Source: Vermamoeba vermiformis
Taxonomy: Eukaryota
Reading direction: 5' to 3'
DNA length: 64,000 nt
NCBI GenBank assembly: GCA_045837725.1
Contig: JBEWZL010000075.1
Span: forward strand, 1 to 64,000
The position numbers and the translations under genes are program-made. Below the pieces are notes generated by a model, which was not told the DNA's origin, made no database searches, and saw only the letters and a program-made list of their open reading frames with translations. Of this stretch, positions 17,881 to 19,545 are shown in pieces (position 1 is the first letter of the stretch; each line of letters starts with the position of its first letter).

Positions 17881-19545
17881 CTAGACAGCCATGTCCATCT
17901 TGATGGTGGGATGTGGGTCGTAACCGACCAACTCGAAGTCTTCAAACTTGAACGAGTCAATGTCAGTAACATCGGGGTTGATGCGGATCTTCGGGAAGGG
18001 TTTGGGAGTGCGTTGGATTTGCTCCTTGAGAGGCTCAACGTGGTTGGTGTAGACGTGAGCATCGCCGAGAGTGTGTACGAACTCGCCGCCCTTCAAGCCG
18101 CAGACTTGAGCAAGCATCAAAGTCAACAAAGCATAGCTAGCAATGTTGAAAGGAACTCCCAAGCCCATATCACAAGATCTACATAAAAGGAAATTTTAGT
18201 CTGATGATCCGAAAAAGGGTCGAAAAGAAAAAGAAGGTTTAAAAAAAATAAGATGTCTCAATTGCGAATTGCGTCGTCATTATATTTCCGACAGCCAAAG
18301 GAACATTACTGTTCTCTTGCATCATCGATATCTAATTATTCGTTATGATCCGATCCAAAAATCGCAGGACCGTTACGTATTGCGGGATAATTGTGGGAAG
18401 GAGGAGTAAGCTGCAGTACGCTTTTACCTTTCCGCTACAATGCGCAGCTTTGGCCGAGAAGTTCAGCCAGAAGCAGATCGGATTCGATCCACATCCAGCG
18501 AACCAAGCAGCGCAATGTACCACCAAACAAGGCACCGCCACCTTCGTTTATCACGAAGCCAAAAAGCAAAAAGAAAAGAGCACAACACCTCCGATTCCCA
18601 GGTAGTCTCCTACCCCAGTACTAAGAAGGCCTGAACAAGCTTAACTTCGCTGATCGGACGGGAAGCGGTGCATTCTTGTTAGTGTGGTCGTGCCCGAGAC
18701 GAAAATCAATTTCGTGTTCAGGTCACTCCTTCCGCAGATACGTAACAGCCCACAGAACGATGGCCAGATCGAGATCGGACAATGAATTGTTTCGATAGAA
18801 CTTACCGTTGGTAAAGTTGGCACGAGAGCTCTCCATTTGCGACGTAGAATTGGCAAAACATGTGGCAAGGAGGCAAAGCCATTTGATCGAGGTCAGCAGG
18901 GTTCCAAGCACTCATTACAATGCGGCGGTCGTTCGGATTTGTTTTGAGTTTGTGGATTACGTCCTTGAGTTGGTCCACGCCTTGTCCAGTGTAGTCAGTG
19001 TGCATATCGACGTACTTGGCACCGAAGTGTCGCCATTGGAAGCCATAAACTGGTCCCAAGTCGTTTTCTTCGCGATGAGTCAATCCGCGTGAATCCAAAA
19101 ATTGTCTCGAGCCATTAGCGTCCCAAATCTTGACGCCCTTCTTCGACAAGTTCGCGCCGTTGGTATCGCCACGAATGAACCATAAGAGCTCTTCGACAAC
19201 TCCTTTCCAGAAGACTCTCTTAGTGGTCAACAACGGGAAGACTCCATCTCGCAAGCTGAATCTGTTCAACAAGAAGCGTTAGAGACTAGTCGAGCAATTT
19301 AAATATATCTCGTCTCGAGTGTGTATTTACTAACCTCATTTGAGCGCCGAACTTCGAAATAGTACCGACGCCAGTTCGATCGTCCTTGCGATTTCCGTGC
19401 TTGATAATGTCTTCAATCATCTCCAAATATTGATACTCTTCGTGCCTAATAATATTGTCAGTATCATATACGCGTAGACAATACTATTATCTGACGCTTA
19501 CTTTCTCTCAGAGCCTTGTTGCGAAGATGAGACTTCAGATGCCAT
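17881..19545 (-). CDS. TYMS: Thymidylate synthase (monofunctional ThyA type), 4 exons
   Basis: [71 protein letters not shown]. Has a 627-nt intron at 18179-18805. Confidence 0.97.
18251..18333 (-). ncRNA. Box C/D snoRNA in the TS intron (U53/snoR37-like LSU guide)
   Basis: C ATGATGC; guide GTTCCTTTGGCTGT before D' CGGA, complementary to the conserved LSU ACAGCCAAxGGAAC; C' ATGACGA; D TTGA; terminal stem AGATATC/GACATCT. Confidence 0.7.
18561..18577 (-). terminator. RNA polymerase III oligo-T terminator of the 5S gene
   Basis: TTTTCTTTTTGCTTTTT on the minus strand directly after the 5S 3' end. Confidence 0.8.
18577..18695 (-). rRNA. 5S: 5S rRNA gene (119 nt) nested in the TS intron
   Basis: GGGCACGACCACAC...GCACCGCTTCCCGTCCGATCAGCGAAGTTAAGC...TTAGTACTGGGGTAGGAGACTACCTGGGAATC...GTTGTGCTCT. 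Helix I pairs, the length is canonical, and T-runs follow immediately. Confidence 0.97.

Follow-up and report, generated by a model that had tools for sequence, protein, structure and literature searches.

An intact 5S rRNA gene within a thymidylate synthase intron of Vermamoeba vermiformis, and evidence from related loci for a dispersed 5S family lodging in introns in the sense orientation

We analysed a stretch of 64,000 nucleotides (nt) from the amoeba Vermamoeba vermiformis (assembly GCA_045837725.1, contig JBEWZL010000075.1, positions 1 to 64,000; hereafter the window), in which a preliminary description had placed a 119-nt 5S ribosomal RNA (rRNA) gene at 18577-18695, inside a 627-nt intron (18179-18805) of a thymidylate synthase (TS) gene. 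The Rfam 5S model RF00001 matches at identical coordinates, untruncated over model positions 1-120 of 120, with a score (Table 1) far above the gathering threshold of 38, and the cmscan alignment flags none of the positions in helices I-V as a non-standard pair. This is the sole Rfam match at gathering scores in the 64 kilobases (kb), and a blastn search of the 5S against the window found no second copy. Lowering the Rfam cutoff to E values up to 1 over 17000-20500 again returned the 5S alone, with no second small RNA detected in the intron, and ARAGORN found no transfer RNA (tRNA) genes in the window. The gene accordingly matches its earlier portrayal as a single copy outside any array, with a eukaryotic 5S consensus, a paired helix I, T-run terminators directly after it and the same orientation as TS (both lie on the minus strand), and its covariance-model score is high where a low one had been named as grounds for rejecting it.

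The gene is also flanked by signals of its own. The sequence upstream to position -1 reads GGAGTGACCTGAACACGAAATTGATTTTCGTCTC, and its core AGTGACCTGAAC is found once in the window. Immediately 3' of the gene stands TTTCTTTTTG, the form of a type-1 terminator of RNA polymerase III (Pol III). Within the gene, the box C region reads TGGGGTAGGAGACTACCTGG, which on a regular-expression search is a near but not exact match to the consensus quoted in the available text of PMC3369914.

The host gene can be read as four exons on the minus strand, which is the only open model, with introns of 56, 73 and 627 nt; its homologues begin at the second ATG, 18 codons downstream of the first. The last 285 residues of TS are identical at 281 positions to P0006 (a EukProt accession labelled Vermamoeba vermiformis), and four unannotated proteins, P0006 among them, are 99-100% identical to exon 3. 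For the third intron, which houses the 5S, the 18178-18806 junction occurs in 1, 1 and 8 RNA reads across three runs, another 5 and 9 reads continue from 18179 into an exon 3 copy that has diverged, and the TS proteins P0005 and P0006, both derived from transcripts, run across the site without a break. Intron 3 is thus used by splicing, as the preliminary description had supposed, and the 5S lies nested between working splice sites on the host's strand, starting 110 nt past the donor and ending 398 nt before the acceptor. The DNA run X1 additionally holds a second form of the introns at roughly half depth (at 18241-18444, 18720-18865 and 19474-19480), with small deletions and 9 differences in 145 nt, which suggests two diverged haplotypes in the isolate.

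Table 1. Coordinates of the features at the TS locus, and of host genes, tandem units and tRNA genes at related 5S loci (L numbers).
Locus	Feature	Coordinates	Strand	Details
Window	TS exon 1	19502-19599	minus	From first ATG (19599); gene model and homologue comparison
Window	TS intron 1	19446-19501	minus	56 nt
Window	TS exon 2	19335-19445	minus	Model open solely with these bounds
Window	TS intron 2	19262-19334	minus	73 nt; 11, 11 and 38 spliced RNA reads in three runs
Window	TS exon 3	18806-19261	minus	Pfam PF00303 Thymidylat_synt, 193 bits; 100% identical to P0005
Window	TS intron 3	18179-18805	minus	627 nt; GTAAGT..TAG (CT..AC on plus strand)
Window	Upstream promoter-like block	18696-18731	minus	Core GTGACCTGAACA at -31..-20 (18726-18715); TC at -2/-1
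Window	5S rRNA gene	18577-18695	minus	119 nt; Rfam RF00001, 104.7 bits, E 6.6e-22
Window	T-run terminator region, TTTCTTTTTGCTTTTTG	18576-18560	minus	Directly 3' of 5S; read in the sequence
Window	TS exon 4, including stop codon	17881-18178	minus	tblastn of P0005 and P0006; gene model
L018	Host CFIm25-like NUDIX_2	Intron 4562-5203		642 nt; profile 2-148 before 5S, 144-188 after; frame continues
L010	Host HOOK	Intron 1824-1232		593 nt; HOOK_N before 5S, HOOK coiled coil after; in frame
L003	Host UCH			103-223 of 254
L005/L008	Host tuberin			247-328 of 347
L013	Host peptidase M24			44-96 of 208, after AMP_N (aminopeptidase P)
L015	Host W2-domain factor			C-terminal W2 domain; open reading frame begins 43 nt past 5S
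L019	Host DUF829			177-242 of 242
L023/L002	Host RFC1-like			AAA and lid downstream; upstream donor after 77 open codons
L024	Host neurobeachin-like			Neurobeachin DUF4704, 5-89 of 486
L025	Host xanthine dehydrogenase			Middle domains
L027	Host VID27			258-301 of 356
L028	Host acyl-CoA oxidase			5-57 of 169
L018	55-nt tandem units	4777-4979		
L003	55-nt tandem units	4772-4976		
L001, L005, L010, L017, L024	55-nt tandem units			
L003	tRNA-Gln(CTG)	4659-4731	plus	UCH host intron, between donor and 5S, same strand
L013	tRNA-Ile(AAT)	388-461	minus	Aminopeptidase P host intron, between donor and 5S, same strand

To place this gene among its relatives, we used a 39-nt core of the 5S to fetch 28 metagenome loci, each with one 5S copy. 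The 28 genes are 97.5-100% identical to the window 5S, which for its part matches that of L013 at 100% identity and departs by 1 nt from the sequence most frequent in the set, and all 16 loci scanned with Rfam scored 83.6-105.4 bits. Merging three duplicate contigs (L002 equals L023 upstream, while L005 equals L008 and L006 equals L007 downstream) reduced the 29 copies to 26 distinct ones including the window, with about 25 distinct flank sets among the 28 loci; L012 and L027 are alike in their first 50 downstream bases, yet they do not cluster and L012 lacks a VID27 match, and they were counted separately. Many of the related copies stand at contig ends, as expected because a repeat of this kind breaks assemblies.

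What the copies share is a compact set of signals around the gene. Of the 23 copies (the window's among them) whose sequence extends 12 nt or more downstream, all 23 are followed by a T-run (at least four T within about 12 nt). Upstream, the core GTGACCYGAAYA sits at -31..-20 in nearly all copies with upstream sequence, and its spacing is unchanged across four lineages of flanks (those of the window, of the main type among the metagenome loci, of the L019 and L022 type, and of 5S-bearing RNA reads from a diverged strain), with the stretch from -19 to -1 varying by lineage. A core so fixed in place amid drifting flanks is most readily understood as an upstream promoter element. The copies are unlinked and single, their flanks are varied, no array is seen, and the window holds no other Rfam family, all of which is the pattern of a dispersed 5S family.

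We then translated the open reading frames (ORFs) that surround each copy on either strand and compared the products with Pfam. The position relative to a host gene could be called in 13 of the 26 distinct copies, and in every one of these the 5S lies inside a protein-coding gene in the sense orientation, with none antisense (two-sided binomial p of about 0.0002 for 13 of 13, by hand arithmetic). In three copies, namely TS in the window, L018 and L010, the same host gene is found on both sides of the 5S and on its strand; a further ten border an exon on their own strand with a Pfam domain that must extend past the 5S (Table 1). A cruder and independent test, which required a donor site within 450 nt upstream preceded by at least 70 stop-free codons, was positive in 10 of 16 distinct upstream flanks, compared with 0 of 18 for its mirror-image antisense control; the donor pattern used there failed to catch the GTAAGG donor of L010. 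Sense donor sites also follow 78 and 108 open codons in L004 and L006, two of the loci whose flanking ORFs had no Pfam match (L001, L004, L006/L007, L009, L011, L012 and L014).

The introns themselves are unusual for their hosts, being roughly ten times longer than the 40-75 nt of host-gene introns that carry no 5S. By a rough estimate, chance alone would place about 9% of copies in introns and half of those in sense, taking 22,483 genes with 3.5 introns each (PMC7125106), introns of about 65 nt and a genome of 59.5 megabases (Mb). Judged from these flanks, introns look like a usual home of 5S genes in the Vermamoeba lineage, and the earlier suggestion to that effect for this genome gains support by way of the related contigs.

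RNA data add to this picture at the level of the family rather than of the single copy. Across three runs, with mate orientations summed, depth over the two bins covering the 5S reaches 27-74 reads, against 0-5 in the rest of the intron, and 34-62% of the aligned reads continue into unlike flanks. Given this run-on, an unstranded library and read starts that do not pile up at +1, the reads are best taken as coming from all copies. A-tailed RNA reads end at 18576 or 18579 (2 reads each), and these A-tails mark RNA 3' ends at the predicted terminator.

RNA runs bearing the same species label differ from the TS exons at many third-codon positions (41 listed sites) with the same splice points, and strains under this one label thus seem to be well diverged. 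None of the 41 listed differences falls inside 18577-18695; with the RNA strain this diverged at third-codon sites of TS, a 5S without a listed difference indicates that the window copy carries conserved, not drifted, sequence. The preliminary description had proposed that a copy differing from expressed 5S and showing no Pol III occupancy would be a pseudogene, and of these two signs the first, a difference from expressed 5S, is not seen among the listed differences. A DNA run carrying the same organism label reaches a summed depth of about 93,000-97,000 over the 5S, where most flanking bins stand at about 100-330. Depth is not itself a copy number, and the contrast is read here as no more than a rough indication that hundreds of 5S copies exist. 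Hundreds of copies in a genome of 59.5 Mb (reported in the draft-genome paper, PMC7125106) would fit one copy per 64-kb window.

Taken together, these observations make it probable that the window 5S is a functional, independently transcribed and ordinary member of a dispersed multi-copy family that lodges in introns in the sense orientation, with Pol III as the predicted polymerase. Each member would be a compact unit, made up of an upstream element at a fixed distance, a 119-nt gene with an internal control region, and a T-run terminator. The TS intron would be one such lodging, from which the host removes the intron by splicing so that TS is still made. Transcription of the window copy by Pol III, and the use of its product in ribosomes, are predictions drawn from intact signals. 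The likeliest reason for the pattern would be selection, in that, where the genome is compact, introns of expressed genes may be places of open chromatin, and a sense-oriented copy would avoid both head-on encounters between polymerases and A-rich antisense signals in the host pre-mRNA (precursor messenger RNA). An orientation-specific way of spreading is a possible alternative reason.

Several observations weigh against this interpretation. Half of the distinct copies (13 of 26) have no callable host position; among them, L016, L021, L022 and L026 adjoin a same-strand gene in which the place of the 5S cannot be called, and L020 (convergent, about 700 nt off) and L017 (divergent) have their sole identifiable neighbour on the opposite strand. 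L013 has no core at -31, its motif occurring only further upstream. The evidence for the family pattern is drawn from relatives' metagenome contigs and not from the window's own genome, in which a tandem 5S array may exist elsewhere. Contigs that cross repeats can be chimeric, and L017 and L027, which are 99% identical for 1.4 kb on the upstream side of the 5S (an ORF matching AlaDh_PNT_N lies in this stretch), differ downstream, so that one of the two was probably misjoined across the 5S repeat; as a safeguard, hosts were called from the three two-sided cases and from one-sided domain arguments alone. Finally, no RNA read can be assigned to the window copy, the complementary DNA (cDNA) being unstranded and without a pile-up of starts at +1, and 54 differences with weaker support stand outside the 41 listed ones, among which there may be minor 5S variants.

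The absence of any copy-specific expression signal in the RNA runs is what a silent orphon would also produce: an intact gene carried as neutral intron cargo, with ribosomal 5S supplied by other copies or by an array. The tandem 55-nt promoter mini-units found ahead of many related copies are also missing from the window copy, and hundreds of copies, on the rough depth estimate, would make any single one dispensable. We nevertheless regard a silent gene as unlikely, since its 5S sequence, upstream core and terminator are all intact, and since the second haplotype departs from the window at 9 of 145 positions in the intron flanks, a drift that a neutral 5S should share, yet the 5S equals those of L013 and of the RNA strain.

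The uniform orientation of the copies raises a different question, namely whether the 5S depends on its host for expression. Under such a route, 5S rRNA would derive wholly or partly from host pre-mRNA made by RNA polymerase II (Pol II) and would be trimmed from the excised intron in the manner of small nucleolar RNAs (snoRNAs). Sense residence would then be a requirement, as the 13 of 13 callable copies might suggest, and the many RNA reads that extend from the 5S into both flanks place copies within longer transcripts. In Caenorhabditis elegans, by comparison, only 56% of intronic tRNA genes are sense, a figure used by its authors against such a route (PMC4999229). The copies share the sense intronic position of snoRNA genes, but they do not share the lack of an own promoter and terminator: a conserved core at fixed spacing and a T-run fit an autonomous Pol III gene and would be superfluous for a processed intron RNA. 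Reads entering the flanks are in any case expected, because size-selected cDNA libraries lose a mature RNA of 119 nt. We therefore consider this route improbable.

The mini-units bear on the same question. Upstream of many related copies stand 1-4 units of 55 nt in tandem, each combining a promoter-like block with the opening 6 nt of 5S (GGGCAC) and a short T-run (TATTTTG); in L018 and L003, Tandem Repeats Finder (TRF) counts 3.7 such units, matching at 91-97%. These units look like abortive mini-genes, and their resemblance to initiation-termination modules argues against derivation of 5S from host transcripts. A repeat search of the window's TS intron found no tandem mini-units there, the only periodicity being a 7-nt A-rich one in the terminator. 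In L003 and L013, a tRNA gene stands in the same intron as the 5S, so that each of these introns appears to hold two co-oriented genes of Pol III type.

A broader version of host dependence would make 5S genes, and some tRNA genes, obligate sense lodgers of introns whose expression depends on host Pol II, with part of the 5S, at the extreme, cut from spliced introns. We hold this to be a long shot. If true, it would be the first 5S rRNA derived from Pol II and would couple ribosome supply directly to a set of host genes, and the tandem 55-nt mini-units would become tuning or decoy modules for Pol III on introns.

The identity of the host invites a more specific interpretation, in which the 5S regulates TS, either as a Pol III roadblock or by coupling the supply of deoxythymidine triphosphate (dTTP) to ribosomes. 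The co-directional nesting in TS is real, Pol III units in Pol II genes are said to be able to interfere with their hosts (as with a mammalian-wide interspersed repeat, MIR, in Polr3e), and intronic tRNA genes of C. elegans are influenced by the promoters of their hosts (PMC4999229). A special role for TS is nonetheless very unlikely, given that none of the 28 related loci lies at TS and that the other hosts, which include CFIm25-like, HOOK, tuberin, UCH, VID27 and RFC1-like genes, share no common function. These functionally unrelated hosts make TS one incidental host among many, and leave the proposed tie of dTTP synthesis and S phase to ribosome biogenesis without support. The RNA runs contain TS mRNA spliced across the intron, so any block by the 5S unit would be incomplete.

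The neighbourhood of TS shows an arrangement of its own. A dihydrofolate reductase (DHFR) ORF on the plus strand (20074-20598, PF00186 profile 67-159) lies head-to-head with TS at a distance of less than 500 nt; the mapping covers this ORF without the first exon. TS and DHFR are both enzymes of the thymidylate cycle, encoded here by separate genes with a divergent promoter region common to both.

A dispersed family also calls mobile elements to mind, whether a 5S-derived short interspersed element (SINE) or other retroposon, or an intron-creating introner that carries a 5S. What has multiplied in this family is a unit of about 170-400 nt, non-transcribed upstream sequence included, and a weak, imperfect 17-nt direct repeat (14 of 17 positions), at 18466-18482 and 18763-18779 with a spacing of 297 nt, brackets the unit in the window. 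A search for target-site duplications or terminal repeats around the window unit gave weak short matches only, with this pair as the sole candidate; a short two-copy match of this sort often arises by chance and probably did so here. The window 5S has neither an unrelated body nor a tail that is A-rich or like that of a long interspersed element (LINE), being full length and ending in its own terminator. Copies of an introner should be alike over the whole intron including its ends, but here the intron sequence outside the unit, both splice-site regions included, is unlike between loci, and the distance from donor to unit varies from 30 to about 250 nt. Mobility in either form is, in our estimation, the least probable of the explanations considered.

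Elsewhere in the window, long ORFs with S1 and RRP5 domains on the minus strand (46866-52463) form a multi-exon RRP5 gene, a gene of rRNA biogenesis, whose best database relatives have only 36-51% identity. The best named RRP5 matches were fungal, at about 36% identity, a misleading hint of an early fungus that gave way to the amoebozoan placement from the TS match to P0006. The GC content of the window is 41.8%; for the Vermamoeba draft genome, PMC7125106 gives 41.7% GC and 59.5 Mb in 14,852 scaffolds. This agreement in GC, the TS match and the separation of DHFR from TS all favour V. vermiformis or a very close relative.

The point of note is the family habit of sense residence in introns and not the TS locus itself. 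A lineage with sense, intron-lodged 5S genes would be a natural system in which to study the sharing of templates between Pol II and Pol III, and would raise the further questions of why orientation matters and how a non-mobile gene with an external promoter spreads. On the practical side, hundreds of near-identical units of 200-400 nt within genes will disrupt short-read assemblies and gene models of this amoeba, and 5S-bearing introns will look like maskable repeats.

The textbook arrangement of 5S rRNA genes is a tandem array or linkage to ribosomal DNA (rDNA), and dispersed 5S families are known from Acanthamoeba castellanii and Neurospora. Dispersed 5S genes are also named for Schizosaccharomyces pombe and Yarrowia lipolytica in a passage of PMC12636532, and the word 'intron' does not occur in the available text of PMC3369914. 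The copies studied here resemble such dispersed families of microbial eukaryotes in being scattered single genes with flanks of their own, an upstream element, a T-run and no linkage to the large rDNA; they differ in that copies elsewhere are described as lying between genes, whereas here at least half of the callable copies lie in introns, all in the host's sense.

As for Pol III units inside Pol II genes, a MIR element in an intron of mouse Polr3e is reportedly a Pol III unit that lies antisense to its host and acts as a roadblock. The TS intron likewise houses a Pol III-type unit in an expressed Pol II gene, but in the sense orientation. In C. elegans, 44% of 609 tRNA genes are intronic, a share equal to chance, 56% of the intronic ones are sense, and the host promoter influences the nested tRNA gene (PMC4999229). 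In the worm, too, genes of Pol III sit within introns of Pol II genes, a likeness strengthened by the pairing of tRNA and 5S in L003 and L013. Orientation among the C. elegans tRNA genes is near random, however, in contrast to the 13 of 13 sense copies here, where the nested gene is a 5S with an external upstream element.

Yarrowia lipolytica offers a further parallel, with dicistronic tRNA-5S genes in which Pol III co-transcribes the 5S with the tRNA (PMC2566860). In both cases arrays have been abandoned, and scattered 5S genes are tied to an upstream transcription unit on the same strand; the partner here is instead a Pol II host gene. Even where a tRNA gene accompanies the 5S, in L003 and L013, it lies about 240-260 nt upstream, with the 5S promoter block (L003) or other sequence (L013) in between.

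Full-text literature searches, whose scope did not extend to subscription journals and supplements, found no description of intron-housed 5S genes, and a term search of the Vermamoeba draft-genome paper (PMC7125106) found 18S rRNA alone, with neither 5S nor tRNA genes mentioned in the text searched. Dispersed 5S families and intronic Pol III genes are thus each known already, and what appears to be undescribed is their combination in a sense-oriented, intron-lodged 5S family, of which the copy in the TS intron is most likely an ordinary member.

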